55,519 nt of DNA. Source: Abditibacteriaceae bacterium. GTDB lineage: Bacteria; Armatimonadota; Abditibacteriia; Abditibacteriales; Abditibacteriaceae. Numbering within the stretch: position 1 is the stretch's first letter; every line of letters starts with the position of its first letter. Shown piece after piece: positions 4,935 to 45,416 of the stretch. The stretch covers positions 1 to 55,519 of the forward strand of contig JANMKN010000403.1 in NCBI GenBank assembly GCA_031372065.1. Reading direction: 5' to 3'. The position numbers were made by a program, and so were the translations under genes. The notes below the pieces were generated by a model that saw only the letters and a program-made list of their open reading frames with translations, was not told the origin of the DNA and ran no database searches.

Positions 4935-5073
4935 AATAAATGAAAGTTTTCAAGAGAATGAAGCAAAGAAAGTGGTGAAAAATGCAAGTATGTCCGCTGA
5001 AATTAAGAATATACTGCAAATACCACCCAGACAGGAGCACACTGCGCCGGGGCACTGCTCCAGCCGCAAGATC

Positions 5074-5451
5074 ATGCGAACACGCCGTCAATTTATCCGT
5101 GACGCGGCGCTCTCTTCCGCCGCGCTTGGTTTGTCGCTGCGCGCTTTCGCCAACGCCGACGAGGCCAAGCCGGCGAACGATACAGCCTCGTTTTTCTTGG
5201 TAGGCGACACTCACTATTGCGCCGACGAAGCAGTTATTTCGGTCATGGATGCGACTTCTGCCGGTTACAATGCGCGGCTCATTGAGTGGCTTAATAAGCT
5301 GCCCGGAACCGCCATCGCCGCCACCGCAGGAGGCGGAAGCGTGTCGCAACCACATGGCGTGATCCATGCGGGCGATCTGATTAATAACGGCGACAAAGGC
5401 GGGGCAAGGTTGAAGATGGTGCCCACAGAACATGTCTGGAATCACCCATGA
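5074..5451 (+). pseudogene. N-terminal fragment of a Tat-exported metallophosphoesterase
   Basis: Tat motif TRRQFI, DTH and GDLINNG motifs. The later GNH and GHxH motifs are absent before the stop, which overlaps the next ATG. Confidence 0.7.
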
Positions 5452-9867: not shown

Positions 9868-9891
9868 CCTTTTGGGGATTCACGAAATTCC

Positions 9892-10344
9892 ATGCCCGAA
9901 CAAATTCCAGCCAAACCCATTTCGCACACAACTCGCAACATCGAAGGCTGGGCGGTGCGCGTTGACGACCGTTTGTTGCAGCCGGAAAACGAAGCGCAAC
10001 CGCACGGCGTGAGCCATGCGGGTGATCTGATTGATAATGTCGGCAAAAGCGGTCGCCCGATTGTCCTTGTGCATCATGTGGATGTGCATCGCTACTCCGA
10101 AGTCGTGCCGGACAACAAAGTGCTTAACAATGAATGGGATTACGGCGGTGAGCGTGCCTTTTATGGCGTGCCGTTTCTTAATACCGACAACGCCGGCCAT
10201 TTTGTTGGCCCGGCGCAGGCTTTCCTTCACATCGAAATTGATGCGAAGGAATTGCGCGTGCGCGAGTTTGCCACCAGGGACGGCTGGCAAACCGGCGACT
10301 GGACACCGCAACTGTGGAAGTTCGCTTTGAACACAACCGCTTAA
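9892..10344 (+). pseudogene. Mosaic ORF: peptidase-like N-terminal fragment fused to an internally deleted metallophosphoesterase
   Basis: SHTTRNIEGWAVRVDDRLL, then QPHGVSHAGDLIDN (a homolog of 5345-5387), jumping directly to GRPIVLVHHVD and a C-terminal segment. Confidence 0.55.
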
Positions 10345-28345: not shown

Positions 28346-31300
28346 ATGGATTCAACTCTTAGGGAGCATCTGAACAGTTACGTTCCGCCTGCCATTTTGC
28401 GTTTCGCGATGGCGGATTGCACACCGCGCGCAATGCCTGCCGCCGAATCCTCGGCGGCAGCAATTCTTTTTGCCGATATCTCTGGTTTTACGCCGCTTGC
28501 TGAATCGCTCGCACAGCGCGGCCCAGCGGGCGCCGAGGCCTTAACGCAACTTCTCAACGATTATTTGGGCCAACTGGTCGAATTGATTCATTCGCAGGGT
28601 GGCGAAGTTTTGAGTTTTGCCGGAGATGCTTTGTTAGCGATGTGGTCTGATTCGGTCTGCGGCGAAAATCTTTCGCTTTTGACACAACGTGCGGCCTACT
28701 GCGCTTTGACGATTCAAAAGCAATTCAACAATTACGAGCCGACAGAAAGCCTTCAATTGCAGCTGCGATTAGGTATCAGTGCCGGCGAGGTGACGCTGTT
28801 GCTTGTGGGCGGTATAGAGGGCTGCTGGCAATTTGAATTAGTCGGTGAACCGTTGTCGCAAATATATATTGCGCAAGGTTTGGCAAAGCCCGGTGAGGTC
28901 GTGTTGGATGATGCAGCGTGGCACCATCTGGGAGCATATTTAACTTCAGCGGCGCAAAGCGAAGCATTGGATATTGGTTATCGCCACTTGCAAGATATTC
29001 CGGCCCCGCCAAAGCCGCCTGCGATTTCGCAAACTTTTGATGCAACGCCTGAAATAGCTTCTTTAGTGCGCGGCTATGTGCCTCAGGCGGTCTTGTTTCG
29101 CCTTGAGGCAGGCCAAACCAATTGGATAGCCGAATTGCGCCGCGTCACGGTTTTGTTTGTCAACGTCAAAGGATTGGATTACAACGTGCCGACGATTCTC
29201 GATCAAGTGCAACAAGCCGTTTGTGCCATGCAGACCACGCTGGCGCATTTTGAAGGCAGCATTCGTCAATTGATCGTGGACAATAGCGATACGGTTCTCA
29301 TTGCGGCGTTCGGCTTGCCGCCACGCACTCACGAAGACGACGCTGTCCGCGCCGTGCAGACCGCTGTAGAGATACAAGACCAATTGAAATCGCAAGGCTT
29401 GCTTTGCTCGATTGGCATCACAACAGGCCGTGCCTTTTGCGGGCCTGTCGGCAATGACCGGCGCCGCGAATATGCGATGGTGGGCAGCATTGTCAATTTG
29501 GCCGCGCGTTTGATGCAGGTTTTTCCTGACCAGATTTTATGTGATGCTCCCACTTATCAAGCGGCCAAATCGCGCTTGCAATTTGAGGCTTTGCCACCTG
29601 TCAAAGTCAAAGGCAAAGCCGAACTGGTGCCGATTTTTCTGCCGCGCCGCGAAAGCGTGCAACCGCAGGTTGTAATTGCAGCCGAGCAAAATTCCATGCT
29701 GGGGCGCCACGCCGAGCGAAAAGAATTAACAGAGCGTTTGGATGCGTTGAACGAGGGAATGGGCGGCGTGGTGGTGATTGAAGGCGATCCCGGCATAGGC
29801 AAATCGCGCTTAGTGGCCGACCTGCTTGTTCAAATCAAAAACAAAAACTGCGCGACTTTAATCGGTGCCGGAGATGCCATCGAACCTTTCACGCCCTATC
29901 TGGCATGGCGCCCGATTTTCGCTCGGATTTTAGGCGTGGATTCACTCACCGAATTGCAAGCGCGCCGGACGCAAGTTTTGAATTTATTTGAGAATGAACC
30001 GAAATTAGCGACACCCGAAATCTTGCGGTTAGTGCCGTTATTAAATAGTGTTTTGCCTTTGGATTTTCCTGAAAACGATCTCACCAAAGAAATGGGCGGG
30101 CAGGTGCGCGCCGATAACACGCGCAACTTGCTGGGGCGTCTTTTGCAGGTATTCGCCTCAAAAAAGCCAACGGTTTTAATTATCGAAGACGCACATTGGC
30201 TCGATTCCGCCTCGTGGGTGCTGGCGCTTATCGCTCATAACCGAGTGAAGCCCTTGCTGATAGTTATTGCCACGCGTCCGCTTGCAGAGCCGATTCCGGG
30301 CGAATACAAGCAGCTTTTACAAGCGCCGGGCGCCGAATTATTAAAGTTGGAAGCGCTGCCTGCCGACAATATGTTAGACCTCGTTTGCCAGCGATTAGGC
30401 GTCACCACGCTGGCGCAATCGGTAGCCGATTTAATTCAAAACAAAGGTCAGGGAAACCCCTTTTTCAGCGAAGAATTAGCTTATTCGTTGCGCGAAGCGG
30501 GCACGATTGTCATTAAAGACGGTGAATGTCGCGTGGCGCCGGAAGTCAATCTTGATACCATCACATTGCCCGACAATGTTCAGGGCGTGATCACCAGCCG
30601 TATAGACCGCTTGGCGCCGTCACAGCAATTGCTTTTGAAAACGGCCAGCGTGATTGGCCGTGTCTTTCCTTACAAAGTGCTGCGCGATATTTACCCCGGC
30701 AAAACCGATATTTCACAACTGCCAGATTATTTGGAAGGCCTTGAACGGTTGGATATTACGCCCAAAGACACACCAGAGCCGAATTTAGCGCATATTTTCA
30801 AGCACGTTATCACGCAGGACGTGAGCTACAATTTGATGCTTTTTTCGCAAAGGCGCGAATTGCACCAAACCGTGGCGCGCTGGTATGAGGAAACATACGA
30901 CGAAGATTTGTCTTCGTATTTTCCGTTGCTGGCCCATCACTGGGGCCGTGCTGAGGTGCGGGCCAAAACCATCGAATATTGCGAAAAAGCGGGCAAACAA
31001 GCCTTGCGCAATGCCGCTTATCAGGAAGCAGTCGGCTTTTTTGAGCAAGCGTTGGCGCTGGGTGCCCTCGAAATTCCAGCCTCTGCGAAAACCAAGGAAA
31101 ACTCCTTGCGGCGCGCCCGGTGGGAACGACAACTCGCGGAAGCGTTAATCGGCGTGGGGCGCCTTTTGGAATGCCGGGCGCATCTCGAACAAGCGGCGCT
31201 TTTGCTACACGATGCCGTCCCCGACACGCCCAAGCGGCTTGCTTTAGCCTTGACCTCACAAATTCTGCAAGTGGCAAACCACCGTATGCGACCTGCATTG

Positions 31301-32494
31301 CAAGCGACAAACACCGACGACAAGCACCGCTTTCTTGAAGCCGCGCGCGTCTATGAGCGCTTGGCGCAAAGCTATTTCCATGACAACCAAGTGGCGCGTT
31401 CGCTTTATTGCAGCCTGCATTCGCTCAATTTGGCGGAAGTCGGTGGCCCTTCGCCTGAACTGGCACGCGCCTGTGCCAGTGCCAGCATTACCACTGGCCT
31501 CGTGCCTTTGCGGCGTTTGTCCGATTATTATGACCGGCGCGCCATCGAAATCGCCCATTCAACCGGTGAACTACGCGCCACAGCGTGGGTTATCAACCTT
31601 TCGGGCTTATGTAGCATGAATATCGGGGCTTTAAATCAAGCGCGCCGCTTAATGGAGCAGTCCGTCGTTATGGCCGAAGAATTGGGAGATCGCCGTCAAA
31701 CGATAGAATCTCTGGCTCTTCTCACTTTAAACAACTATTACGCGGGCCGCTTCGCCGAGGCCAATCAGCAAGCTTTTCAGCTTTACGAGGCCGCGCTGCG
31801 AAACGGAGATATTCAAGGTCAGGTGTGGGGATTTTGTTTTCAGTCCATCAACTTGTTAATCATGGATAAAGTCGAACAGGCCGCTATGCTTATGGAAGCG
31901 GCGGAAATAATGCTGAAGGAAAATGTGGGCGCCAGTTTGGGCACGCAGGAGCGCATGGAGGTTTACGGCGCGTTGGCCTTGGTGCGCTTGCGTCAGGGCG
32001 ATTTGCAAGGTGCGCGACAAGCCGCCGACGAATTGTTGCCCATCCTGATGAAACCACCTACCACAGCCGCGATATTTTACAGTTACATCAATGCGGCAGA
32101 GGTCTATTTTAGGTTGTGCGCCAACCCGCAAGGCAAATTCACGAACGATAAGGTCTTAAGGAAGCAAGCCGTGCGCTCATGCGCCGCATTGCGCAAATTC
32201 GCGCGCGTTTTTCCTTTGGGGCAAGCGCGCGCTTTCCTTGCTCAAGGCGAGTTGGCGTGGCTCAAAGGAAAACCCCGCACAGCCTTTGGGATGTGGCACA
32301 AGGCCTTGTTGGCCGCAGAACGCCTTGAAATGCCTTACGAACAAGCCTGCGCGCACTATAAAATCGGAAACCACTTGCCAAACGCCGCTCCGTCACGTTT
32401 GATGCATTTGCAAAAGGCCAGCACCCTTTTTAAAGAATTAAACACTATTTATAATCCCAATCAAGCGCAAGAAGTTTTGCATATAATGGCGTAG
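28346..32494 (+). CDS. Soluble adenylate/guanylate cyclase-like protein (two class III cyclase domains, STAND NTPase, TPR)
   Basis: LFADISGFT, FAGDA, VNLAARLM, Walker A GDPGIGKS, Walker B IIEDAHWLD, GNPFF, helical C-terminus. Confidence 0.9.
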   Translation: MDSTLREHLNSYVPPAILRFAMADCTPRAMPAAESSAAAILFADISGFTPLAESLAQRGPAGAEALTQLLNDYLGQLVELIHSQGGEVLSFAGDALLAMWSDSVCGENLSLLTQRAAYCALTIQKQFNNYEPTESLQLQLRLGISAGEVTLLLVGGIEGCWQFELVGEPLSQIYIAQGLAKPGEVVLDDAAWHHLGAYLTSAAQSEALDIGYRHLQDIPAPPKPPAISQTFDATPEIASLVRGYVPQAVLFRLEAGQTNWIAELRRVTVLFVNVKGLDYNVPTILDQVQQAVCAMQTTLAHFEGSIRQLIVDNSDTVLIAAFGLPPRTHEDDAVRAVQTAVEIQDQLKSQGLLCSIGITTGRAFCGPVGNDRRREYAMVGSIVNLAARLMQVFPDQILCDAPTYQAAKSRLQFEALPPVKVKGKAELVPIFLPRRESVQPQVVIAAEQNSMLGRHAERKELTERLDALNEGMGGVVVIEGDPGIGKSRLVADLLVQIKNKNCATLIGAGDAIEPFTPYLAWRPIFARILGVDSLTELQARRTQVLNLFENEPKLATPEILRLVPLLNSVLPLDFPENDLTKEMGGQVRADNTRNLLGRLLQVFASKKPTVLIIEDAHWLDSASWVLALIAHNRVKPLLIVIATRPLAEPIPGEYKQLLQAPGAELLKLEALPADNMLDLVCQRLGVTTLAQSVADLIQNKGQGNPFFSEELAYSLREAGTIVIKDGECRVAPEVNLDTITLPDNVQGVITSRIDRLAPSQQLLLKTASVIGRVFPYKVLRDIYPGKTDISQLPDYLEGLERLDITPKDTPEPNLAHIFKHVITQDVSYNLMLFSQRRELHQTVARWYEETYDEDLSSYFPLLAHHWGRAEVRAKTIEYCEKAGKQALRNAAYQEAVGFFEQALALGALEIPASAKTKENSLRRARWERQLAEALIGVGRLLECRAHLEQAALLLHDAVPDTPKRLALALTSQILQVANHRMRPALQATNTDDKHRFLEAARVYERLAQSYFHDNQVARSLYCSLHSLNLAEVGGPSPELARACASASITTGLVPLRRLSDYYDRRAIEIAHSTGELRATAWVINLSGLCSMNIGALNQARRLMEQSVVMAEELGDRRQTIESLALLTLNNYYAGRFAEANQQAFQLYEAALRNGDIQGQVWGFCFQSINLLIMDKVEQAAMLMEAAEIMLKENVGASLGTQERMEVYGALALVRLRQGDLQGARQAADELLPILMKPPTTAAIFYSYINAAEVYFRLCANPQGKFTNDKVLRKQAVRSCAALRKFARVFPLGQARAFLAQGELAWLKGKPRTAFGMWHKALLAAERLEMPYEQACAHYKIGNHLPNAAPSRLMHLQKASTLFKELNTIYNPNQAQEVLHIMA

Positions 32495-32603: not shown

Positions 32604-34052
32604 TTGAAAAATATGCAACAGAATATTCTGGCCGTCCGCCAGTTGCCGCCTTCGGGATTGCGCCGTTTTATCATTGGTTGGGTTGCCGTTTTGGTCGCGG
32701 GTTTTGTCTTATTGGGCAGCGGATTATCGTTTTCCATTGGTCGTTTGCACGCCCAAACCGAGAAAATCTACAAAGACAGCCAAAGTTTACAGGTCAATCA
32801 TCAATTGGAAGCCGACGCGCTCGCTGCCGAGCGGTTGGCGCTGCTTGACAAAAATCAAAACGACACGCGCCGCCTTGCGCAGCGCAACGAGGTCATTGCC
32901 GACGGCCAAAAAACCCTGCTGATATTGAATGATCTGTCGCAAGATGCCATCGAACGCCCGATGGCTGCTGAAATCGCGCGGCGTTTCGAGGCGCTCACGA
33001 GCGGGCTGCAAAATCCGGCCACACACGAAGCACAGCAACAATTATTGCTGGATGATTTATTGAAAACTTTGGGCAAGCATCGCACTTTGCAACGCCAGCA
33101 AATGGCGCAAACCAAAGAGGCCAGTGCGCGCTTGGATCGCCTGACAGATAATTGGGTCATCGCCCTTTTGCTGATCTCGTCGCTAATTTTACTCATGGGC
33201 GTGGCCGAGTTGTGGCAGCGCATTTTCAAGCCAGCGCTCGAATTGGAAACAGCCGCCCGCGCCTTTGGCGGTGGCAATTTAAAAGCGCGCGCCATAGTGC
33301 GTCGGCCCGATGAAATGGGACGCTTGAATGAAACCTTCAACGCGATGGCACAAGCTTTAAGCGACCGCGAAAAAGAGCGCTTGCATTTTGTGGCGACCGT
33401 GGCGCACGACTTGAAAAATCCGCTTGTCGTCATCTGCGGCGCGGCGCATTTGCTGGAAAATAAATCGGAGGTTTTGCCGCCCGAAGAACGCCTGCGCTGG
33501 ACAAAAAGCATCGCGCGCAACGCGCATCAGATGGAAAACCTCATCGGCGATTTAACTGACAGCGTGCAAAACGAAACCGGCCAGTTGAATCTGCATTGTG
33601 CCCCTTTCGACTTGGCTGTTCTCACGCGCGAAGTGATGCAAGACCAAGCTGCCAGCGTGCAAACGCACGCGTTGCGCTGGACTGCCGAAAACCGATGTTT
33701 AATCAACGCCGATAAGCGCCGCATCGAGCGCGTTTTGATGAATCTGGTCTCCAACGCCATCAAATACAGCCCGGCGGGCCGCGAAGTGTGGGTGAGCGTG
33801 ACGACGACGAATAATCATGCCCTTCTCGAAGTGCGCGACGAAGGCGCCGGCATCGCGCCGGACGAGTTGAAAACCTTATTTCGTCCCTTCGCGCGCCTCG
33901 AACGCACCAAAAGCATGGCCCAAGGCACCGGACTGGGCCTGTCGTCGGTCAAAAAGATCGTCGAAGCGCATGGCGGCACCATCGAAGTCGAAAGCCAAGT
34001 CGAAAAAGGCACCACCGTGCGCGTTAAACTGCCGTTAGCTGCCAAAGAATAA
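32604..34052 (+). CDS. Membrane sensor histidine kinase (HAMP, HisKA, HATPase_c)
   Basis: Two transmembrane segments, DEMGRLNETFNAM, AHDLKNPL, NLVSNAIKYS, DEGAGI, GTGLGL. Confidence 0.92.
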   Translation: MKNMQQNILAVRQLPPSGLRRFIIGWVAVLVAGFVLLGSGLSFSIGRLHAQTEKIYKDSQSLQVNHQLEADALAAERLALLDKNQNDTRRLAQRNEVIADGQKTLLILNDLSQDAIERPMAAEIARRFEALTSGLQNPATHEAQQQLLLDDLLKTLGKHRTLQRQQMAQTKEASARLDRLTDNWVIALLLISSLILLMGVAELWQRIFKPALELETAARAFGGGNLKARAIVRRPDEMGRLNETFNAMAQALSDREKERLHFVATVAHDLKNPLVVICGAAHLLENKSEVLPPEERLRWTKSIARNAHQMENLIGDLTDSVQNETGQLNLHCAPFDLAVLTREVMQDQAASVQTHALRWTAENRCLINADKRRIERVLMNLVSNAIKYSPAGREVWVSVTTTNNHALLEVRDEGAGIAPDELKTLFRPFARLERTKSMAQGTGLGLSSVKKIVEAHGGTIEVESQVEKGTTVRVKLPLAAKE

Positions 34053-34704: not shown

Positions 34705-34889
34705 CACGGTCATTCAGTTCTCTGAAAACCAATCAAATTCAGTGCTTTCCAAGGTTGGGCAGCACAAGCACGGCACGCTGCCGCGATATTGGTGGTGCCA
34801 TTGCAGCGTAGCAGCCCGATGGCCGTATTGCGCATGGCAGCCAAAACTTGCGGCAGGTGCCCGCTTCGCACACGAGAGCGATCTTCATC

Positions 34890-34945
34890 CCATGTAACGT
34901 CTCTTACCCAGTGCAAGCCATGTAACGTCTCTTACCCAGTGCAAG
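34890..34945. repeat. Perfect 28-bp tandem duplication
   Basis: CCATGTAACGTCTCTTACCCAGTGCAAG x2, which frameshifts the transposase C-terminus. Confidence 0.95.
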
Positions 34946-35644
34946 CCATTCTCAATTTGCCAGTGGGAGCGCACCATTTTTAGTAAAGTCGCTGCATCTG
35001 CTTGCTTCTGGCTCAAACTGGTAATGCCGTAGACCGTTTCGCGTCGCACTCGTCCACTTTTCTTGCAGCGCGTTTCGCGTTGCAGTGAAAACACTTGGCA
35101 GCGCCCTGGCCAAACGAACCAAGTCAAATCCGCTGGCACACTCAGCACACAGAGTTGGCGCACTTCGATGCGACCATGCCCAACTTCACGGGTGGCGGCA
35201 AAGCGCAACGGAGGCCAAATACTCTCATCACCTACAGCTCGCACACGTTGCTTGGTTAAGCTGCTCTGCGCAATTGAGTCATTTGCCCCTCTGTTATTCG
35301 AACCTGTTTCCTTTGTTCCCTTGCGGGCACGCTCCAATAATCGCTGAATATCCGCACGCAAAGTCGGTTGGTTGCCTTTTACGGGCATTATATAGTGCCC
35401 TTTTTATCGATGATTGTTTGTGCCACCTCACGTTGCGTCAACAGAGCATCTACGGTGACAACACGCCCTTCCAGCACCAAACTTCGCAGAACTTCCTGCA
35501 CAGCAGTTATCTCGTTGCTCTTATCCTCAACGGCCTGCTGGTGCAGCGTCAATCCCAAAGCCGGACTCAACGCTGCTAACAAATGGGTGCCCGGCGCTCC
35601 TTGGCGCGCACTGCCACGCAATGTCTTGCCATCAATGGCGACTA

Positions 35645-35680
35645 CGTTTGTCGTGGCGTTTGTCGTGGCGTTTGTCGTGG
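35645..35680. repeat. 12-bp tandem repeat x3 (in-frame ATTN repeats in the transposase)
   Basis: CGTTTGTCGTGG x3. Confidence 0.9.
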
Positions 35681-36040
35681 CATTGGCCGCCAATACCTCC
35701 TGTGCCCACTGGCCCAACGTGGCTTCTAAGGCCTGATGATCCAAGTGGGTCAAGACCGTGTGTAGCGTGCCAACGCAGGGTGTCTTGCCGTTTTTGAAGC
35801 CCAGTGACTTGGCTAACTCGACTTCATAATGTTGACCCCACTCGGCCATCGCACCATAGCTGCGATAGCCGCACAGCGTGGCGGCACAGACCAAAGCCAG
35901 AATGGCAGGTAAAGGATGGCGCTTGCCCTCAGCACGCCGAAAATCCGGCACTGCGCCTAACACTTCAATCAGTGGTTTCACGTTTTCGTTCATCACGAAC
36001 CGAAGTCTACTCTCCTATTCTGGAGAACTGAATGACCCTG

Positions 36041-36553
36041 GTGAATGGGCGTAGCCTCTTGCGGCGGCGCCACGTTAGCCTCGACCAGAACGGCTTTGCC
36101 CGCACTCTGGAAGATGCTGTCGCCGACGCGCTGGATGCCGCGCTCGATTTCATGGAGCGATTGGTCTTGGCGACGCGCCAGCCCATCGGCGATCCCGAAG
36201 CCGCCATCAAGCGGCTGGGACGCTATTGGAACCTGACCGAAGCCACGCAGCAGCAAGTGCAAACTGCGCTGCTGCGCGAGCGAGAAGGTCAGCAGGACTC
36301 GCTTTACGGTTTGGTAAACGCCGTCACATTCGTGGCGCAAAGCCTGCCGGACGACGACCGCTATCACCTCGAAGTGCTGGCCGGGCAACTGGCCGAGCGC
36401 GGCATTCACGCCGCCCCGCGCGGCACGCTGGCCGAAGCGATTGACGATCCGCTGGCCGACGAAAGCGAGGTGATAGACGATGCCCAAAACGGAAGTCCCC
36501 AAAACGGAAGTCTCCAAAACGGAGACGCCACTTTCGCCGCCCTGTCTTTGTGA
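36041..36553 (+). pseudogene. 5'-truncated DUF932-like protein
   Basis: Frame begins abruptly at the IS end: VNGRSLLRRRH...SLYGLVNAVTFVAQ...RYHLEVLAGQL, resembling DUF932 C-termini. Confidence 0.6.
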
Positions 36554-36728
36554 GGAATGTCAGGTGGCGCTATGCGACTGGCTGCGGGCTTATGAAAGGC
36601 AGCAGGAAAGCACAGCGCTTGCCAGAAAGGGACGCAATCCCTTTTTGGCGCGGGCGCTGTGGCATCACGCCGCAACGCATCTGCGTCACATCCGGCGATT
36701 GATGGCGAAAGGAGGTGCTACACCATGA
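36480..36728 (+). CDS. Small hypothetical protein (CLCEEC motif)
   Basis: GAGGTG RBS 7 nt before the ATG; the stop overlaps the nuclease ATG (ATGA). Confidence 0.55.
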   Translation: MPKTEVPKTEVSKTETPLSPPCLCEECQVALCDWLRAYERQQESTALARKGRNPFLARALWHHAATHLRHIRRLMAKGGATP

Positions 36729-37549
36729 AGATCAGCGCGACGCGATTGAAGATGTATCTGACGTGTCCCCGGCAATTCAAATACGCCTACCTTGACGAAT
36801 TGCCCAGGACTATGACAGGTGCGTTGGCTTTCGGGCAAACGATTCACCGCACGTTGCACGAGATTCATCTCAGCAGCGCCGAAAGTGAATCGCCGATGGC
36901 AGTGGATAGCGCGTTTGCGGTGTTTGACCGCCTCTGGCGTGAGACGCTGCAACGCGACAAGCCAGTTTTCAAAACGGCGGAGGAATCCGAAGCCTATTGG
37001 AACTTGGCCGACGACATTTTACGCCGCTATGTGACCGCGCAGTTAGCCAAACCAAGAGACGCTCCGGCACCGTTGGTGTTGGAGTTTCCCTTTGAGATTC
37101 CGTGGTTTGATCCGGCCTGTCAGGAGTATCGAATCTGCGGCATCATTGATCGCGTGGATGAAGGTCGGCAAGGTTTGATTATCGTGGACTTTAAGTCTGG
37201 CAAGCGCAAGCCTAAAGCCGATAGCATCGGCAGCGACCTGCAATTGCTGCTTTATGCCTACGCTCTTGAAAACGTGCTGAATCAACCAGTGGAACAGATT
37301 GCCGTTTTGCATTTGCGCGACGGCACGCTGCTTCAAGCGGAGCCATCGCCCGATGCTCTGCACCGATTGCTCGATGAGGTGCTGCCCAACGTGGTGCAGG
37401 ACATCCAGCAAGAGCGATTCGCACCGCGTTACGGTTATTGGTGCCGCTACTGCGACCATAAAACTGTATGCGATGCCGAAGGCCCGCCCGAACCCGCAGC
37501 GCAAGACTTCGCAGAGGCTCACGAGATGATGCTGGCCGGACAAGGTTGA
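36725..37549 (+). CDS. PD-(D/E)xK RecB/Cas4-like nuclease with Fe-S cysteines
   Basis: SATRLKMYLTCPRQF, GIIDRVD, IVDFKSG, QLLLYA, CRYCDHKTVC; strong RBS AAGGAGGTG. Confidence 0.9.
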   Translation: MKISATRLKMYLTCPRQFKYAYLDELPRTMTGALAFGQTIHRTLHEIHLSSAESESPMAVDSAFAVFDRLWRETLQRDKPVFKTAEESEAYWNLADDILRRYVTAQLAKPRDAPAPLVLEFPFEIPWFDPACQEYRICGIIDRVDEGRQGLIIVDFKSGKRKPKADSIGSDLQLLLYAYALENVLNQPVEQIAVLHLRDGTLLQAEPSPDALHRLLDEVLPNVVQDIQQERFAPRYGYWCRYCDHKTVCDAEGPPEPAAQDFAEAHEMMLAGQG

Positions 37550-38129: not shown

Positions 38130-39791
38130 TTATCCAAGTGACATTGTTTGGCACCAAGTGCCTATCTTCGGAAATCCAATCTGTAAACGCCCGGCAGCGG
38201 TTCGAGTGTTGTCTACGATGCCACCCCAACTAAGACGAACATCGCGCAAGGCCGCTGATTGTTGGCTTCCAGAGCCACTTTTCAGCGGTTCGAGCGCGCG
38301 ATATTTAGCCTCCAACTCTTGATACTCTTCCAGAAGCGGAACTAATACCGGGTTCGGTTCGATAGTGATTTTTTTCTCTTCCAGAACGAACTTTGTCCCG
38401 ACAGTTTGCGCGATGGCGCGCCGCGCCATCACGTCGCCCGCCGCGAACCAGGCGCGGGCATTGACGGCGAATTCCAGAGCGTTCTCCACCGCTTCACGCG
38501 AGAGATCGCCCTGCTGTTCCACATGATCGGCCTCGAAGTGCAGCGCGTTGCGCTGTGCCGCCAATTCGTCGCGCTTGCGAGTGTAATCTTCATCGCTCAC
38601 CACGTCCTTCAAACGCAAATCCAACAGATTATCCAACTGGCGATTGACTTCGACCAGCGCATTTTGCTTTTGCTGGTAAGCCGTCTGCCGCACGGTTTCT
38701 TCTTCGTTCCGCCAGCGGCGAATTTCCTCAATGCCCCACTCTTTGAACTCCGGTAGAATGGTCAATTTCTCCAGCAATTCATCAATGTTTTTAGCCAAAT
38801 CGTCCTCGCGCACGCCGCGCTTGTGGCAGGTGCCGAAGCTGTCGCTGCAATGGTAATAAACGTAAGAGCGCCGCTCGCCGGTGCCGCGAATGAATTTGGT
38901 TTTCAGATCGGCAGTGACCGCCTGACCGCAATGGCCACAGCGAATCAAGCCGGTGAAAGCGAACTCGTGTTTTTGCGCTCGCCGCTGCGTGCCGCTATTC
39001 AGCCTGTCCTGCGCGCGTTGATAATCATCCAGCGAGATCATTGCCTGATGCGCGCCCCGGTGCAGCATTCCGTTGTGATGAAAGTATCCGGCGTAAAAGA
39101 TGTTGTTGAAAAGGTTATAGAGCGTGCTCCGCGACAGCGGGCCGCCGGCCTCTCCTTTAGTCGCCGGCACGCGAAAGCCCATCTCGTTGTTCAGCTTGTC
39201 TAAAATCGCCGTCACGGAGAAGGTGCCGGACAACAGCAAATCCCACGCTTGCCGCAGCATGGCAAAACGCACCGGGTCGGGTTCGATAGTTTTGTCCAAA
39301 CGGTTGTTGAGATAGCCCAGTGGCGCCTTGTGTGGGAACCAGCCTTTCTCGATTTTGCTGGCCAGACCGCGCAGTGTGCCTTTCCGAAGGTCAATGATGA
39401 ACTGATTGGCGACGGCGGACTCGACGCTGAGTAGCACCACGTTATCACCCGGCAGATACTCTTTGTCCATCGTTTGAATGGAGCGAATTTGTCCCTGTTG
39501 CAGCATCCACGAAACGGTGCCCTGATCAATCGGGTTACGCAGTAAGCGATTGATGCTCCACACCAAAATGCCGTCGGCCTCGCCGGCTACAATGCGCTTC
39601 AGCATGGCGTTGAACAAAGGACGCCCCGGCGCTTTGGCAGAAAACTCTTCGCGGACTTCGTCCACGATCAAAAGTCCCTTGCGTTCGGCCAGGCGATGCA
39701 ATTCCTTGATCTGGTCGCCTATGGATTGGACTTGTCGGTTTTTGTCTTCTTCGAACTTGCGGGCATAGAGGATGTAGCGGATGGCGGACAT
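38130..39791 (-). CDS. Large serine recombinase (resolvase, recombinase and Zn-ribbon domains); catalytic Ser replaced by Phe
   Basis: YARKFEEDKNRQVQSI, SAKAPGRPLFNAML, APLGY, GLIRCGHCG, YYHC, coiled coil. Confidence 0.92.
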   Translation of the reverse strand: MSAIRYILYARKFEEDKNRQVQSIGDQIKELHRLAERKGLLIVDEVREEFSAKAPGRPLFNAMLKRIVAGEADGILVWSINRLLRNPIDQGTVSWMLQQGQIRSIQTMDKEYLPGDNVVLLSVESAVANQFIIDLRKGTLRGLASKIEKGWFPHKAPLGYLNNRLDKTIEPDPVRFAMLRQAWDLLLSGTFSVTAILDKLNNEMGFRVPATKGEAGGPLSRSTLYNLFNNIFYAGYFHHNGMLHRGAHQAMISLDDYQRAQDRLNSGTQRRAQKHEFAFTGLIRCGHCGQAVTADLKTKFIRGTGERRSYVYYHCSDSFGTCHKRGVREDDLAKNIDELLEKLTILPEFKEWGIEEIRRWRNEEETVRQTAYQQKQNALVEVNRQLDNLLDLRLKDVVSDEDYTRKRDELAAQRNALHFEADHVEQQGDLSREAVENALEFAVNARAWFAAGDVMARRAIAQTVGTKFVLEEKKITIEPNPVLVPLLEEYQELEAKYRALEPLKSGSGSQQSAALRDVRLSWGGIVDNTRTAAGRLQIGFPKIGTWCQTMSLG

Positions 39792-39991
39792 GGAGTTAAG
39801 CCATAGCCAATAAGAATCAGCAGGTTGTGAGCTAACGAAGCGGCATCGGGGTCAGCCAACTCGACTCCGAAATGTTGCTTGTAAAGCTCTTTGAATCGCT
39901 TCACGCCTTCCGCGCTGGGCGCGGGCGGCAGAAACGCTGCTGCGGGTTTGCCGGTTTGCGGTTCCGGTTGTGATGATGCAGAATCCTTCAT
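39719..39991 (-). CDS. Small conserved-looking hypothetical protein directly upstream of the recombinase
   Basis: Amphipathic core SAEGVKRFKELYKQHFGVELADPDAASLAHNLLILI; overlaps the recombinase start. Confidence 0.55.
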   Translation of the reverse strand: MKDSASSQPEPQTGKPAAAFLPPAPSAEGVKRFKELYKQHFGVELADPDAASLAHNLLILIGYGLTPCPPSATSSMPASSKKTKTDKSNP

Positions 39992-40052
39992 GCGGGCAAG
40001 TCACGGTTAAGACTTGCCTCACCTTGACGGATTCGGATTTTGCAGGCCAGCC

Positions 40053-40072
40053 GCGTTGCCGATCAGCAACGC
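40053..40072. promoter_or_regulatory. Palindromic operator-like site, copy 1
   Basis: GCGTTGC-CGATCA-GCAACGC in the divergent recombinase/P450 intergenic region; 18 nt identical to 42552-42569. Confidence 0.6.
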
Positions 40073-40147
40073 CAGCGCTGCCGCATCGCCCTTTCATTAC
40101 CGACAGAAAACGCGAAAAAGTCAACCCTTGCGGCAATTTCACCAACG

Positions 40148-41479
40148 ATGCCAGACAGATTTCCCTTACCGGCAAGCGCATGTGGCTCGACATCAAAACT
40201 CTTGAACTGGCTGCTTGCGTCCCAGCCCGGCTGCTACCTGCACTCCGCTGAATGCCCTCTCTACTGGGTCACCGACCCGGCGGACGTTGAAATGATCTTG
40301 TCCAACCCGGATGACTTTCCGAACGCTCCGGCGGCCCCCGAATATCGAGCATTTTTAGGCGACGGCACAGCAGCGACGTTTTATGTGCCGCATGAACACA
40401 ATGGTGATTCCACCTCTGAAAACCACGCCAACTTTCGGCGACATAAACGCCGAGCGATAGCTCCACTCCTCGGCCAGGCGACAAATGCAAATCGCAAAAC
40501 GGCGATGGAGGAAATAACGCACCGCGCCACGGCTGTCTGGATGCCGAGCCAAGTCGTGGACGTTCATGCCGTGCTGCACGAATTATTTTTTCAGATTGCG
40601 TTGCGCTGCCTGTTCCAAATCGAAGTTAGCGATGCGGTTTTGGCCGCCAACGCCACCTTGCGCCAAACCGCAGGTCAAGTCGCCGCTTATGTGCAAAGTT
40701 CTCAAAACCGCTTGCTTCCTTATTTTGACCGGGGTAAGGCCCTCAGTCCCGCATGGGAGACACAGCAAAGCGAGCAATACGCACAACTTCGCGCCCGGCG
40801 CCAAAGCTTGGACTTAATTCTTGACTCCATGCTGGTTGCCGTGGAGCGCGGCTTGAGAAGCCCGCTATTGGAGCAGGTTCGCACCTTGCCTCTGAACGAT
40901 GAGGCCGACTTTCGAGCCGTGCTCGGCGGTTTGCTGATGGCCAGTTACGAAAACAGCGCCGCATGGGGCGCGTGGGTTATGGAGTGTCTGGCTGACCGTG
41001 CCGACTTGCAAAACGAGATCGCCGAGGAAAGCCGCACTTCGCGCGAGAACATGCTGCTTTCTCTTTGCCTCTCTGAGGCCTTGCGGCTCTATCCGCCTGT
41101 CTGGTCTTTCGCCCGGCGGGCAAAACGCGATCTCGTTTTGACAAATGAAAGCATGATTCTAAAGGGCAACATTATTTTGGTTAGCCCCTACGTTCAACAA
41201 CGCCATCCCTTGCTCTGGGAAGGCGCGGCTCAGTTCAATCCTCGGCGCTTTGCAATTGACGATGCACCCGGCATAGGACGCTATTGCCCGTTTGGGCATG
41301 GACTCTACGGTTGCTATGGAGAAGCGTTTGCGCGTGATTCAGTGCGAGCGGTGTTGAGCGCGCTGTTGCGTGAGTGGCGATTTTCTCCAGTCCTCGGCCA
41401 TCCAGCTCCAGAGGTCGCTTTTGGGATCACGCTGTTTCCTTTACATGGCATCTGGCTGCGCGTTGAGCGGCGGGACTGA
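40148..41479 (+). CDS. Cytochrome P450
   Basis: K-helix EALRLYPPVW, FNPRRF (PERF), heme-binding PFGHGLYGCYG, I-helix LMASYENS. Start codon uncertain. Confidence 0.9.
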   Translation: MPDRFPLPASACGSTSKLLNWLLASQPGCYLHSAECPLYWVTDPADVEMILSNPDDFPNAPAAPEYRAFLGDGTAATFYVPHEHNGDSTSENHANFRRHKRRAIAPLLGQATNANRKTAMEEITHRATAVWMPSQVVDVHAVLHELFFQIALRCLFQIEVSDAVLAANATLRQTAGQVAAYVQSSQNRLLPYFDRGKALSPAWETQQSEQYAQLRARRQSLDLILDSMLVAVERGLRSPLLEQVRTLPLNDEADFRAVLGGLLMASYENSAAWGAWVMECLADRADLQNEIAEESRTSRENMLLSLCLSEALRLYPPVWSFARRAKRDLVLTNESMILKGNIILVSPYVQQRHPLLWEGAAQFNPRRFAIDDAPGIGRYCPFGHGLYGCYGEAFARDSVRAVLSALLREWRFSPVLGHPAPEVAFGITLFPLHGIWLRVERRD

Positions 41480-42372
41480 CCACTGACACGGCGCACAGCG
41501 ATGTCGGGATTATCGGCGGCACTCGTTGCCATTTCATTGAGATGCTCTTGCCAGCGTTGTGCCATCGGCGCCGGTAATTCCACCCAGCAGGATTGCCCGT
41601 CGTCATTTTTGACGCGGCACTTTTCGGTATCCGCATACTCCCGCACCGACAGCGCATGAAAAACATCAGAGGCGCGCTGAAGCCTCGCCGCTTGCAGTGG
41701 TGAATATTCGATGGCGATCCAAGCGCCCGGTGCGACGGAAAGACCGATCTCATAAGCCAGTTCACGGCTCTTGATCACGTAACCCATAACATATTCCGCG
41801 AATGATTCCGTCTTCAGCCAACTCTGCAACCGGGAAAAGGCATCTGCCGCCTCGGAGCGTTGATGGAATACGTAGCGAAAATGAACACCCTGCCGCAGAG
41901 CCTGCAAAATCTTCTCTCCCACCGCCCCTCGGTTCGCCTCGTGCAGATAGCCGTTCGAGACGATCCAAACCGCGTTGGCTTCCGCTTCGAGATTCATCAC
42001 ATATTCCAGAGGGCGCACGCCCAAAAAGCGCGTGAGATCGTCGCCCCGGTTGATGGGGTGTGGGCCTGCGGCAATTGAGTTTCGTTGTGTCAGGGCCTGG
42101 AGCTTGAGCACTTGTGCCACACGGGGCGTAATTTTCGCCGTCAGCCAGCGGTTCACCGTTTGCGGCGCCACGCCGATCTCTTGTGCCAGGCGGGGCGGCG
42201 TCAAATCGCACGCCACCAAAAACCGCTCCATCAAGCGAGCCGATAACTCGCGCGAAGATTCAGTCGTTTCACCACGGGACACCACGAAGAGTTGCCGCAC
42301 AACTGTTTCGGCATCGGCGGTTTCAAGTGATTGTAGAACATCGGCAACAGACGTTTTGGACATTGAGAACAT
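41314..42372 (-). CDS. XRE-family HTH regulator with a large C-terminal domain
   Basis: LTPPRLAQEIGVAPQTVNRWLTAKITP HTH, followed by about 200 aa of alpha/beta sequence (AVWIVS...ALRQGVHFRYVF). Start at 42363 or 42372. Confidence 0.78.
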   Translation of the reverse strand: MFSMSKTSVADVLQSLETADAETVVRQLFVVSRGETTESSRELSARLMERFLVACDLTPPRLAQEIGVAPQTVNRWLTAKITPRVAQVLKLQALTQRNSIAAGPHPINRGDDLTRFLGVRPLEYVMNLEAEANAVWIVSNGYLHEANRGAVGEKILQALRQGVHFRYVFHQRSEAADAFSRLQSWLKTESFAEYVMGYVIKSRELAYEIGLSVAPGAWIAIEYSPLQAARLQRASDVFHALSVREYADTEKCRVKNDDGQSCWVELPAPMAQRWQEHLNEMATSAADNPDIAVRRVSGQSRRSTRSQMPCKGNSVIPKATSGAGWPRTGENRHSRNSALNTARTESRANASP

Positions 42373-42469
42373 TGGCGAACATTTGGATTTGGATAATTGC
42401 GCTCTTAAAATAGCGAAAATGTGACGAAAGTCAAGTCCCCAAATCAAAAAATGCTCATTTTTCGCTGTC

Positions 42470-42498
42470 TTGACGATGGCCGCCATTCTCTGTAATCT
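42470..42498 (+). promoter_or_regulatory. Putative sigma70 promoter for the rightward Cro/replication operon
   Basis: TTGACG-N17-TAATCT. A divergent TTGACT-N16-TATTTT (42434-42407) could drive the XRE gene. Confidence 0.4.
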
Positions 42499-42551
42499 GG
42501 CGCCGATTTGCGTTTTTCGTTTGGAATGCACGTTTTGCACGATGGCGCTAG

Positions 42552-42569
42552 GCGTTGCCGATCAGCAAC
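42552..42569. promoter_or_regulatory. Palindromic operator-like site, copy 2
   Basis: GCGTTGCCGATCAGCAAC, identical to 40053-40070, in the divergent XRE/Cro-like intergenic region. Confidence 0.6.
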
Positions 42570-42653
42570 CGCTTTTGAGCGATGTCAAATCATCGCGCAC
42601 TGTGAAAGGGCACCAACCCGAATGTGAAAACTTCATTGCCTTCGATTGATTTC

Positions 42654-43070
42654 ATGTCTCAGCAAAACCACTCCCTATCGCCGATCCTTCACAGCCGCCT
42701 TCGGGCGGTAATGGCGCATACCACACGCTACGCCTTCAAGGGCGAGGCGCGTCTGGCTGCCGATGCCGGCGTGTCCAAATCGGCCATCAACCGGCTGATC
42801 AATGAAAAAGCCAGTTCGTCGTATTGGGTGGTTCTGGCCATCACGCAGGCGCTCGAAAAAGCTTTGAAACGCTCGCTCGACCCGCGCGAACTGGTGTCGC
42901 TGGACGGCGCTTATCCGACCAGCTCGACCTGCAAATTAGTCGGATGCCGGGGCTGCCAACCGTCCGAAGCCTATGATGAAAATGGAACCGTCCGCGCGGA
43001 ATTCCGCCACATGAAACCCGGCGAGTGGGCATTTTATCCATCGTCCAGAGACGGTCCGCGCGGTCGCTAA
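42654..43070 (+). CDS. Cro/XRE-like HTH protein with C-terminal CxxxxCxxC motif
   Basis: EARLAADAGVSKSAINRLIN HTH; CKLVGCRGCQP. Confidence 0.8.
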   Translation: MSQQNHSLSPILHSRLRAVMAHTTRYAFKGEARLAADAGVSKSAINRLINEKASSSYWVVLAITQALEKALKRSLDPRELVSLDGAYPTSSTCKLVGCRGCQPSEAYDENGTVRAEFRHMKPGEWAFYPSSRDGPRGR

Positions 43071-43515: not shown

Positions 43516-44553
43516 ATGGAACACATTTTTCCTCAGCCGTCCGGCTTGCCGCCGCTCGACACCTCCGCTTTGAACAGCACGCAAACTTCGCCGCCCTTCG
43601 TTATTCACATTGAGCATCTCGACATCAAAGATCATGTTTATTGGCGCCCATCGGCGTTTGTAAAGTTCACGCCGGCACTGCGCGAGTCGGGATTTCTGCG
43701 GAGCATCGCGCCGGAGGAATTGAAAAGCATACTCTTTCTGTTGACGTTTCTCACGCCCAACGGCGATTGCTGGCCGTCGCTGGCACAGCTCGCGGAAGCG
43801 ATGGGCGTTTCGACAGGCAAGGCGCGTGAGCGCATGGAGCGTTTGACGGATTGGCGTTGGCAGGACAAAGCAATGGTGGTCACGGCGCAACACGGCAACG
43901 GCGAGCAAGCCTGCGCGCTGGCGCGGGGGATGATTCCCGTGACCGAAGACGCGCAGAAATCATCTTACGACGAGCCAATTCCCATCAAGGCCGCCTCGCG
44001 GGATGCGGTGATCGCCTATTCCCGCGCTCGCTATACCCGTCCCCGCGCCGAAGTCGAGCGTGAGATCGCCGAACTGAACGACTGGGATCTACCAAATGAT
44101 GAAGAGTTTTCTGAGGACGACGCTTATGATGTCGAGCCAGGTCCGCCAGAACCTCCCGAAGATGCCCCCTCGCCGCCAACGGCTTCCAGTGAGTCGGCCC
44201 AGCCCGGTGCATCAGCCGCGCTTGATGCAACTGCCACGCTTGATGTTCAGCAGCGTGATTCGTCGCGCCAACGTAAAATGCGACGGCAGTTGGCCAGAGT
44301 TGGTCTCAACAATGAGGAAGTCCAGTTACTCATGGATCAGTTCGAGCACGGACGCATCCGCCGCCAGTTGCTCTGGCTGCCTTACCGTCACGCCCGCAAT
44401 CCTTCCGCCTACTTGCTGGCTGCCATAGAAGGCAATTATGCGCCGCCGCCGCTTTTGAGAAGGGCGCCAACGCCAACCATCAACTTGCCCCCACCGCCAA
44501 ACCTCGAAACGGAATTACCTCCACACCCGGACGAACCAGCCAGTAATCCTTGA
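43516..44553 (+). CDS. Winged-HTH replication-initiator-like protein
   Basis: ELKSILFLLTFLTPNGDCWPSLAQLAEAMGVS (HTH_36-like); C-terminal ARNPSAYLLAAIEGNY typical of initiator tails. Confidence 0.65.
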   Translation: MEHIFPQPSGLPPLDTSALNSTQTSPPFVIHIEHLDIKDHVYWRPSAFVKFTPALRESGFLRSIAPEELKSILFLLTFLTPNGDCWPSLAQLAEAMGVSTGKARERMERLTDWRWQDKAMVVTAQHGNGEQACALARGMIPVTEDAQKSSYDEPIPIKAASRDAVIAYSRARYTRPRAEVEREIAELNDWDLPNDEEFSEDDAYDVEPGPPEPPEDAPSPPTASSESAQPGASAALDATATLDVQQRDSSRQRKMRRQLARVGLNNEEVQLLMDQFEHGRIRRQLLWLPYRHARNPSAYLLAAIEGNYAPPPLLRRAPTPTINLPPPPNLETELPPHPDEPASNP

Positions 44554-45416
44554 CTCTTATGCAGCGAGGCGCCCACTCCAACTCGCCATCCGGCTTCCTC
44601 TTCACGAAGATGCCCAATCAGTTCGTGGATCGGCTCATGCCGCTGCTCAAAGATACCGAGTGGCGTGTGTTGTGCGTGATCGTGCGCCAGACCATCGGCT
44701 GGCTGGGCACAGACGGTCAGCCGAAAACGAGCGACTGGATCACGCGCCGCCAGTTCATGGAGCGCACCGGGCGCCATGCCGAGGCGATTAGCGAGGCCGT
44801 TGCCGGCCTCATCGAGAAGCGCCTGATTCGCGCTTGCGATGAGGCCGGCAATTTGTTGTCCCAACCGTCACAGCGCCGCAACGCGCGTGGGAGAATCCAA
44901 TATGGGCTACACCCGAACATCTGGAACATTCCCCAGAAAATCCGACACGGCGACCGGAAAAGCGAACTCGACCTTCAGCCTCGCATGGTCGAAAAAGCGA
45001 ACACAACAAAAGAAAATTTAAAAGAAAAATCTGATGAACCCCGTCTCTCGTTGCAGGAAAACGCAGCCATTCGCCTCTTCGAGGCGACCTACGCCCACAA
45101 ATATCGCAGCAAGTTCGCCGTTGATCCAACGCTGTCGGTCTTAACCGAAGACGAGAGGGTTCGCCTGCACGAATTGATTGCTCTGCACGGCGCCAGAGAA
45201 CTCGAAGCAATGCTTGGTAATTTTTTCTCTCGCGACTGGGCGTGGCTCCGAAAGTCCCGTTTTTCGCTTGCGGCGTTCCTCCACAGCCAACATTTGCTGC
45301 GCCTGCTAAAACCATCTGTCGTGGGGAAAAAGAAAAATCATGAGGCACCGGACACTTCGGGGAATGATACTACTGGCGAATTCGCGAACTCTGAGCGATG
45401 GACTTCTGACTTCTAA
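44550..45416 (+). CDS. Phage replication protein O-like initiator
   Basis: FTKMPNQFVD...EWRVLCVIVRQTIGW...DWITRRQFMERTG matches the lambda-O-like N-terminal pattern; start overlaps the upstream stop. Confidence 0.75.
   Translation: MTLMQRGAHSNSPSGFLFTKMPNQFVDRLMPLLKDTEWRVLCVIVRQTIGWLGTDGQPKTSDWITRRQFMERTGRHAEAISEAVAGLIEKRLIRACDEAGNLLSQPSQRRNARGRIQYGLHPNIWNIPQKIRHGDRKSELDLQPRMVEKANTTKENLKEKSDEPRLSLQENAAIRLFEATYAHKYRSKFAVDPTLSVLTEDERVRLHELIALHGARELEAMLGNFFSRDWAWLRKSRFSLAAFLHSQHLLRLLKPSVVGKKKNHEAPDTSGNDTTGEFANSERWTSDF

Follow-up and report, generated by a model that had tools for sequence, protein, structure and literature searches.

The 55,519-nucleotide stretch analyzed here, contig JANMKN010000403.1 of an Abditibacteriaceae bacterium (assembly GCA_031372065.1) and referred to in its full length as the window, contains an integrative element in whose control region a cytochrome P450 gene lies tail to tail with the gene of an XRE-type regulator. 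On balance, and with modest confidence, we read these two genes as a rare accessory cassette of a small RepO-type integrative element, in which the P450 is predicted to stand under the palindromic operator of the element's Cro-like early gene. The P450 (443 amino acids) is encoded intact at 40148-41479 on the + strand, with a PF00067 match and a homolog-supported start. The regulator is encoded at 41473-42372 on the - strand and joins an XRE-type helix-turn-helix (HTH; residues ~26-98) to a phospholipase D (PLD)-fold domain without the HKD motif (residues 113-300), as assigned from its AlphaFold2 model, fold searches, and a family alignment. Divergent from it lies the gene for the Cro-like HTH protein (42624-43070, + strand, likely start 42654), which has a weak HTH_3 match and a Cys-rich C-terminus. 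An earlier note on this DNA, made from the letters alone, had described an intact P450 between a recombinase and an XRE regulator, and both the positions and the intactness were confirmed by Pfam, by the start of the homolog, and by the sequence motifs described below.

Recurrence of the P450–regulator pair

Relatives of the regulator are scarce. Specifically, the full-length protein has three relatives in an index of 5.8 billion proteins (four matches including itself, from 3,639 candidates), and its C-terminal domain gave 21 matches at E ≤ 0.001 among 1.84 billion representatives, six of them at ≤ 1e-30. Of 401 genomes in a sample of the phylum, two have this domain, and full-length matches occur in 2 of 27 genomes of the family, seven others matching the HTH part only. 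No record in phage and plasmid collections matched the regulator, and its best scores in a protein atlas (0.90-0.91) led to unnamed clusters only. Pattern scans based on a four-sequence regulator alignment returned no relative in genome or metagenome contigs and only HTH-level matches in viral contigs, the patterns being too strict to recover even G273, a genome known to carry one.

Every homolog with the XRE–PLD architecture and readable surroundings lies tail to tail with a P450 of the same clade (3/3: the window, G273:C11, and L026). In contig G273:C11, which corresponds to the loci designated L012 and L107, the P450 (3411-4823, +) is followed by the regulator (4849-5727, -) and a Cro-like gene (5980-6444, +); in L026 the corresponding genes occupy 5968-7287 (+), 7302-8183 (-), and 8374-8862 (+), and genes for an HTH_36 and a RepO-like protein come next. 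The stop codons of the P450 and regulator genes are 25 nucleotides (nt) apart in L012 and 14 nt apart in L026, with no overlap, and in 3/3 loci the regulator and Cro-like genes are transcribed divergently. Approached from the P450 side, a search with an alignment of the P450 clade yielded 133 loci (80 metagenomic, 48 genomic, and five viral), among which a hidden Markov model of the regulator C-terminal domain matched L026 and L107 only, the latter being the G273 locus. A fourth pair probably exists, as the contig that yields the closest homolog of the regulator (69% identity) and the one that yields that of the P450 (67% identity) both measure 8,296 bp and are probably the same. The earlier note had named co-occurrence of P450 and XRE homologs as a test of its proposal, and the three readable loci bear it out on this point.

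Among the three loci, pairwise identity is 28-34% for the P450, 40-44% for the regulator, 54-68% for the Cro-like protein, 37-48% for the HTH_36 protein, and 34-39% for the RepO-like protein. On its left, the P450 has a different neighbor in each locus: a serine recombinase gene in the window, a ParB-like gene in L026, and, further upstream, a PNP_UDP_1 effector-like gene in G273. Because the P450 and the regulator travel together, we infer that they also work together.

Element family and probable site of insertion

The Cro-like gene is a conserved hallmark of the element family, occurring in 61 of the 401 phylum-sample genomes, often in several copies, at about 100 places. Its product has a Cys-rich C-terminus (C..GC.GC) and no Pfam or NCBIfam model beyond the weak HTH_3 match. 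For a comparison with cassette-free elements we used the 29 best Cro-like loci, excluding that of the window, with 1.5 kb of flank on each side. In 15 of these loci, a Resolvase domain is encoded by the longest divergent open reading frame (ORF) in the 1 kb that precedes the Cro-like gene; tblastn with the window recombinase also marked 15 of the 29, at up to 52% identity, with the two sets differing by one locus each way. HTH_36 was found in eight loci and RepO in four, and neither the P450 (0/29) nor the regulator (0/29) was found in any. This survey indicates that the usual layout is a recombinase and a Cro-like gene back to back, followed by replication genes, and the P450–regulator pair of the window accordingly looks like an insert wedged between the recombinase and the Cro-like gene.

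Operator-like palindromes

An imperfect 18-bp palindrome, GCGTTGCCGATCAGCAAC, with the core GTTGC-N6-GCAAC, occurs in the window at 40053-40070, 78 nt upstream of the P450 ATG, and again at 42552-42569, ahead of the alternative starts of the Cro-like gene by 55 nt (GTG, 42624) and 85 nt (ATG, 42654). These two are the only exact matches to the 16-bp core in the 55.5 kb, and five matches with up to three mismatches were counted against 0.74 expected. When the region upstream of the P450 was shuffled, it shared a 12-mer with the switch region in 0 of 50 cases. In L026 a different palindrome of 12 bp, GCAAGTACTTGC, is placed in the same way: one copy precedes the P450 ATG by 17 nt, two lie between the regulator and Cro-like genes, and others stand at four further places in that locus, including one immediately ahead of the ParB-like gene; eight matches with up to two mismatches were found against 0.41 expected, and 0 of 200 shuffles attained eight. 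The same palindrome is thus present upstream of the P450 and in the switch region upstream of the Cro-like gene in two of the three loci (the window and L026).

Palindromes with GTTGC/GCAAC arms are also a feature of elements without the cassette. The recombinase/Cro-like intergenic regions of the cassette-free loci hold seven such sites in 8,936 nt, distributed over 5 of 15 regions and including four with N6 spacing (shuffle mean 0.124, with 0 of 500 shuffles attaining seven), as compared with three in the 41,779 nt outside those intergenic regions. Sites of the form GTTGC-N6-GCAAC, or GCAAC-N4-GTTGC, recur across several genomes and were located at L164, L168, L172, L175, and L181, at 40055 and 42554 of the window, and at 2248 and 9419 of L012. 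Because the type is enriched in cassette-free relatives, it belongs to the element family rather than to the cassette, and, judged by its distribution, GTTGC-N6-GCAAC is a candidate family-wide operator. The Cro-like protein may bind the operator-like site as well as, or instead of, the XRE–PLD regulator. The G273 element (L012) has two paralogous Cro-like genes, at 5980-6444 and 9499-10032; the second has a GTTGC-N6-GCAAC site ~80 nt upstream, and the first, which is beside the regulator, has a different palindrome, GGTGCATTGCACC.

Fold and predicted dimer of the regulator

The regulator lies within an ORF at 41314-42540 on the - strand, most likely starts at 42372, and has 352 amino acids if read to 41314. 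The ORF as read shares 166 nt (41314-41479) with that of the P450. The final ~50 residues of the regulator are modeled at a predicted local distance difference test (pLDDT) score of ~40, homologs end near residue 300-325, and the stop codons in L012 and L026 do not overlap; for these reasons the tail at 41314-41472 on the - strand, antisense to the 3' end of the P450 gene, is best explained as read-through and is probably not functional protein.

The AlphaFold2 model, calculated from an alignment of 19 sequences, has a mean pLDDT of 83.9 and rises above 90 in blocks covering residues 20-100 and 120-300. Residues ~26-98 adopt an XRE-type HTH fold, matching Aca10 (7xi5_A) with Z 7.5 (root-mean-square deviation (rmsd) 1.6, 57 residues aligned), C.AhdI with Z 7.0, and P22 c2 with Z 6.0; at the sequence level the HTH_3 score of 18.9 bits is below the 23-bit cut-off. 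For residues 113-300, two independent searches, one with Foldseek and one with a Foldseek-independent aligner, identified an alpha/beta PLD-like fold. Foldseek matched this body to Zucchini (E 2.6e-4), TrmBL2 (4e-4), PLD (5.7e-4), and TrmB (8.1e-4). Structural alignment placed it with PPK1 (2o8r_B; Z 10.8, rmsd 2.6, 128 aligned), TrmB (2f5t_X; Z 10.4, rmsd 3.5, 125 aligned, and 3qph_A; Z 10.2, rmsd 4.2, 129 aligned), Nuc (1bys_A; Z 9.1, rmsd 3.3, 129 aligned), and TrmBL2 (5bpd_A; Z 8.5, rmsd 4.5, 132 aligned), with NucT, PLD, and PSS as further PLD-fold matches (Z 8-10.8 across the set). The suggestion in the earlier note that this domain is reminiscent of TrmB and PLD-fold effector domains is therefore well supported. 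The alignment to TrmB is confined to its first effector subdomain, which is the PLD-like one, as residues 117-299 of the model align to TrmB 110-247 only (Z 10.2-10.4). The second TrmB subdomain, with the sugar-binding residues N305 to E326, is absent, and the ordered part of the regulator model ends at about residue 300.

No Pfam family, PLDc included, matched residues 115-300 even at E ≤ 1, and neither Peptidase_S24 nor the TrmB winged helix (PF01978) had a Pfam match in the regulator. The earlier note had likewise seen no CI/LexA-type S24 peptidase at the C-terminus, and a PLD-like fold is found in its place; control through S24 and the SOS response was set aside accordingly. NCBIfam, PHROG, and PADLOC contain no model for the regulator body, the PHROG matches covering the HTH part only. 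Across the 19 family members the PLD-fold domain has no invariant or near-invariant His or Lys, which means that the catalytic motif HxK(x)4D is missing, and from its sequence the body is not expected to act as a nuclease or phosphodiesterase. A defense system or toxin–antitoxin pair was considered for the P450 and regulator and set aside, given a PLD body without catalytic residues and no model match (for PADLOC, none for either protein at E ≤ 0.001).

A homodimer of residues 113-300 was predicted with a score of 0.85, the best of three controls scoring 0.00; 20 of 30 proteins solved as one-chain pairs attained that mark, as did 1 of 23 proteins with a single-chain structure, and the value may in part reflect likeness to PLD-fold dimers that have already been solved. 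The runs concur in at least 95% of contacts, with a partner pLDDT of at least 90, and the predicted interface includes the best-conserved motifs of the family, among them R244-E245-Y246 and the GQxCWxEL stretch. We infer that the regulator would act as a dimer on palindromic DNA.

Features of the P450

The ORF containing the P450 spans 40040-41479 on the + strand, and the start is placed at 40148 because a 67%-identical homolog of 444 amino acids begins with the same residues. PF00067 matches at 85.9 bits against a cut-off of 22.8 (83.4 bits in a genome-wide profile search). The heme–Cys loop, FGHGLYGCYG, conforms to FxxGxxxCxG, with F382, G383, C389, and G391 conserved or invariant in the clade; the ExxR motif of the K-helix (E310/R313) is invariant, as are F363, P365, and R367 of the PERF-like motif FNPRRF. 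The acid–alcohol pair of the I-helix, which serves O2 activation and is a typical P450 feature but no strict criterion of membership, is not present: the segment reads ASYENS, with N269 in place of Thr in 7/7 clade members, and three outgroup P450s retain Glu-Thr. Known P450s with Asn at this Thr position include P450cin and CYP74.

The clade is small and sharply set apart, with E-values of 1e-193, 2.5e-55, 1e-41, 2e-37, and 2e-34 followed by 6e-20. The nearest solved structure is CYP175A1 (E 6e-21). The best NCBIfam model is that of ApyO, a P450 acting on ribosomally synthesized and post-translationally modified peptides, at 103.6 bits against a cut-off of 525, and the window P450 is not a member of that family; neither similarity suggests a substrate. 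No record in the phage collection matched the P450 at E ≤ 1e-5. With respect to redox partners, the searches agree with the earlier note, which had seen no ferredoxin nearby. Fer4_15 had no match genome-wide, Fer2 had a single match on another contig, and no ferredoxin was found among the scanned ORFs of the window. The source genome contains five further P450 loci, as detected by profile search.

Models for coupling between the P450 and the element switch

In the reading that we favor, the shared palindromes would be operators bound by the regulator, the Cro-like protein, or both, and the P450 would be an output of the element switch, co-regulated with the Cro-like early gene. Expression of the P450 would then track the regulatory state of the element, off as long as the early promoter is closed and on once it opens, and the enzyme would take its electrons from host partners or work through a shunt. 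The arrangement of the palindromes, taken from the DNA sequence, predicts a switch that acts on the P450 rather than a P450 that acts on the switch. Of the claim in the earlier note that the P450 is wired into the switch region, the physical placement stands, and the regulatory link is probable only, with common palindromes in two of three loci.

Several observations weigh against this favored reading. In L012 the switch region has no motif in common with the 360 nt that precede the P450. In locus L106, on a contig of 1,925 bp, a P450 of the clade gives way to IS-like sequence, and the 638 nt beyond the P450 contain no regulator gene. The sample is small (three loci read and one inferred) and came from searches in which the two genes were themselves the queries, and the pairing count leaves out 17 other members of the regulator family as well as the clade P450s P0007-P0010. 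The left site of the window stands in a divergent region and may serve the recombinase and the small ORF upstream of it (orf90) rather than the P450. Moreover, the cassette is bounded exactly by the two 18-bp copies, which have the same orientation, and so they could be an insertion scar or a duplication. A sigma-70 scan upstream of the P450 gave nothing convincing, and sigma-70 and terminator scans returned generic matches only.

Three other explanations deserve consideration, and the favored reading, ligand feedback, and plain cargo are not fully exclusive of one another. The proposal of the earlier note, that the P450 makes or destroys a small molecule bound by the PLD-fold domain of the regulator, such that excision and replication are under chemical rather than SOS control and the P450 is the input of a closed loop, is in our view unlikely, though it accounts for a good deal: the pairing is strict despite P450 identities of only 28-34%, the pair remains a unit while its left neighbor varies among recombinase, PNP-like, and ParB-like genes, the regulator and Cro-like genes keep their divergent orientation in all three loci, and in place of S24 the regulator has the fold of a TrmB effector domain. 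In addition, the predicted dimer interface, which coincides with the active-site cleft of PLD enzymes, includes or adjoins the conserved positions K/R201, R244, E245, and Y246. Dimerization would nonetheless account for these conserved motifs as well. Six of the seven sugar contacts of TrmB come from its second subdomain and only one, Ser229, from the first, according to a review of TrmB (PMC4158304), so that the subdomain matched here provides one of seven and the subdomain with the other six is absent; the TrmB-like fold consequently brings no known ligand pocket with it. TrmBL2, which is without the sugar-binding part, shares the fold, has no known ligand, and is resembled by the regulator as much as TrmB is. 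The occurrence of the GTTGC-N6-GCAAC type in relatives that have no such regulator further argues that the core switch works without it. A bolder and still more doubtful version is an element whose excision and replication would be decided by chemistry rather than by RecA, in which a repressor dimer with the HKD-less PLD fold, seated on the early operator, would use its vestigial active-site cleft to read a molecule that the P450 makes or destroys; that molecule might be a metabolite of the host, a xenobiotic, or a signal of the element's own making.

If the cassette were instead plain cargo, a substrate-inducible P450 with its own local repressor, a combination seen in many bacterial P450–repressor pairs, would benefit the host and have no role in the life cycle of the element, and the palindrome would mark an autoregulatory site and a target site. 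An autoregulated repressor predicts exactly the two sites seen in the window, in its own promoter region and at its target; the space beside an integrase is a usual cargo spot, where related elements hold PNP_UDP_1 effector-like and Mrr_cat proteins, and the five further P450 loci place host partners and P450 chemistry at hand. We consider this improbable, however, as the same operator architecture is enriched in relatives without the cassette, the L026 palindrome recurs at six places over the element, one of which precedes its ParB-like gene, as expected of an element-wide regulator, and the pair has persisted while the P450 diverged to ~30% identity, whereas cargo usually varies. Least credible of all, and to us very remote, is the absence of any functional link, with the adjacency inherited from one ancestral element and the repeated 18-mer left as an insertion scar. 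The three loci do share the Cro-like, HTH_36, and RepO genes, so that synteny is confounded by common descent, and the 18-mers are direct repeats at the edges of the cassette. Yet the left neighbors all differ while the pair is intact and tail to tail within 25 nt, an independent and different palindrome has the same distribution over P450 and switch in L026, and the catalytic motifs of the P450 are retained at ~30% identity.

Relation to known systems

No component of the cassette is of a new kind: P450s and XRE-type HTHs are familiar, TrmB provides a precedent for a regulator with a PLD fold, and the layout resembles that of CI and Cro. Bacterial P450s with an adjacent substrate-responsive repressor include CYP102A1 with Bm3R1 and P450cam with CamR, in which the repressors are of the TetR type and the setting is chromosomal or catabolic. 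The window resembles these systems in that a P450 adjoins an HTH repressor and a repeated palindrome lies in the P450 upstream region; it differs in that the two genes are convergent, stand in the control region of a mobile element, and share their palindrome with an early gene. With the archaeal regulators TrmB and TrmBL2 the window regulator has in common a DNA-binding head followed by a PLD-like-fold domain and, as predicted here, the character of a dimeric or oligomeric repressor of palindromic sites. Its head is of the XRE type and not a winged helix, however, the second subdomain is lacking, and there is no sequence relation detectable by Pfam at E ≤ 1.

The arrangement also recalls CI and Cro of lambda-type phages, in that two divergent HTH genes face each other across a region of ~250 nt with palindromes, beside an integrase and upstream of a RepO-like module. 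In contrast to lambda, there is no S24 autocleavage domain here and hence no RecA/SOS input through the regulator, no virion genes were found in ~10 kb, and most relatives place a recombinase rather than a second HTH gene opposite the Cro-like gene. As for the body of the regulator, it matches FAM83B (5lzk_A, Z 9.5) among PLD-fold domains that lack the HKD motif (FAM83 DUF1669 and MITD1) and, among dimers with a single HKD motif per chain, Nuc (1bys_A) at the Z given above, Zucchini (4gel_A, Z 9.2), and BfiI (2c1l_B, Z 8.3), in keeping with its predicted homodimer; it differs from these PLD-fold families in having no invariant His or Lys and in being fused to an HTH.

P450 genes without partners have been described in giant viruses, a herpesvirus, and Mycobacterium phage Adler, with host partners presumed (PMC9405906). 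The window P450 is likewise without a redox partner gene of its own among those searched for, but unlike the virus-encoded enzymes it is tied to a regulator and a switch region, and it matched no phage record. Mobile elements with their own receptor-type regulator at the switch are represented by VqmA-Phi of phage VP882 and by AimR of the arbitrium system, where the inputs are a host autoinducer and a phage peptide, respectively; in the partial accounts consulted, no oxidative enzyme is reported as the maker of the signal. At the level of titles and abstracts, literature on P450s with prophage repressors or lysis–lysogeny decisions and on PLD-like HTH regulators contained no such pair.

If the coupling is functional, the regulator would represent an undescribed family, with an XRE head on a catalytically dead PLD-fold body, that extends the TrmB-type design to bacterial mobile elements, and the P450 would be a rare, tractable example of such an enzyme tied to a mobile-element switch with defined candidate operators. 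It would also outline a widespread family of small serine-recombinase/RepO elements in the phylum, with a GTTGC-N6-GCAAC operator type and cassettes inserted at the control region. Should the chemistry-decided version prove true, this would be the first prokaryotic integrative element with a small-molecule switch that combines an enzyme and a receptor, and the PLD fold would have gained a new role, in ligand sensing, among bacteria. If the P450 is mere cargo, the gain is a modest one in annotation.

Neighboring genes and element boundaries

To the left of the cassette, the large serine recombinase that serves as the integrase (38130-39791, -) is intact, with Resolvase, Recombinase, and Zn_ribbon_recom all above their cut-offs and a match to the integrase family phrog_95 at 1e-64. 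Upstream of its start, overlapping it by 73 nt, is orf90 (39719-39991, -), a 90-amino-acid frame with no family match that is divergent from the P450 gene and shares with it the operator-bearing intergenic region; orf90 could be a directionality factor, or no gene at all. Further left is a PD-(D/E)XK (Cas4-like) exonuclease gene (36659-37549, +), with PF12705 at 133.4 bits and a match to the exonuclease family phrog_69. To the right of the Cro-like gene, the replication module comprises an HTH_36/phrog_12720 DNA-binding protein (43516-44553, +), supported by Pfam, PHROG, and a homolog alignment, and a replication initiator with a phage RepO-like N-terminus (44550-45416, +), for which PF04492 at 27.3 bits is just below the cut-off and phrog_678 (6e-13) and TIGR01610 also match. 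An inverted repeat of 18 nt (45366-45383/45496-45513, 94% complementary) extends from the end of the RepO-like gene into the adjoining spacer and may be an origin or terminator element. The right edge of the element abuts a rhamnosidase gene.

The left edge is marked and damaged by an IS4-type insertion sequence (IS) with a split DDE transposase (34705-36040, -). A repeat scan of the window located its 18-nt terminal inverted repeats at 34705-34722 and 36023-36040 (94% complementary), and the transposase is broken into two ORFs, 34885-35388 and 35388-35996, with the Pfam domains DDE_Tnp_1_assoc and DDE_Tnp_1 on separate ORFs. Within the IS, 28 nt are duplicated exactly in tandem (34890-34945), and three copies of a 12-nt unit occur at 35645-35689. 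Abutting its end is a truncated phrog_1362-like ORF (36032-36553, +), which covers only positions 288-388 of the 391 in the profile and in which an exact 15-nt tandem duplication (36483-36512) results in a doubled PKTEV peptide. For the IS insertion, the split transposase, and this truncated ORF, the description of the neighbors as decaying in the earlier note is apt; it does not extend to the recombinase, Cro-like, HTH_36, and RepO genes, which align to their homologs over nearly their full length.

Between 36032 and 45851, the Pfam and PHROG matches are to integrase, regulator, RepO-like, and exonuclease families only. No virion, packaging, or lysis genes were identified among the scanned ORFs of this interval, in which small ORFs without matches remain, and judged by these genes the element is not a complete temperate prophage.

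Defense-like cargo was noted in the related elements. In L012, positions 127-1980 encode a PNP_UDP_1 protein of 617 amino acids that matches PADLOC effector models, and Mrr_cat restriction-endonuclease domains occur at L012 10025-11395 and L026 2-769, one of them fused to YdjM. Directly after the RepO-like gene of the G273 element, locus L159 (1593-3245, -; G273:C11) encodes a protein of 550 amino acids with two PLDc_2 stretches, which from these matches is a candidate true PLD-like enzyme. Finally, the window contains at 28346-32494 a gene for a 1,382-amino-acid protein with adenylate/guanylate cyclase, AAA_16, and TPR domains, adjoining that of a HAMP histidine kinase (32604-34052).

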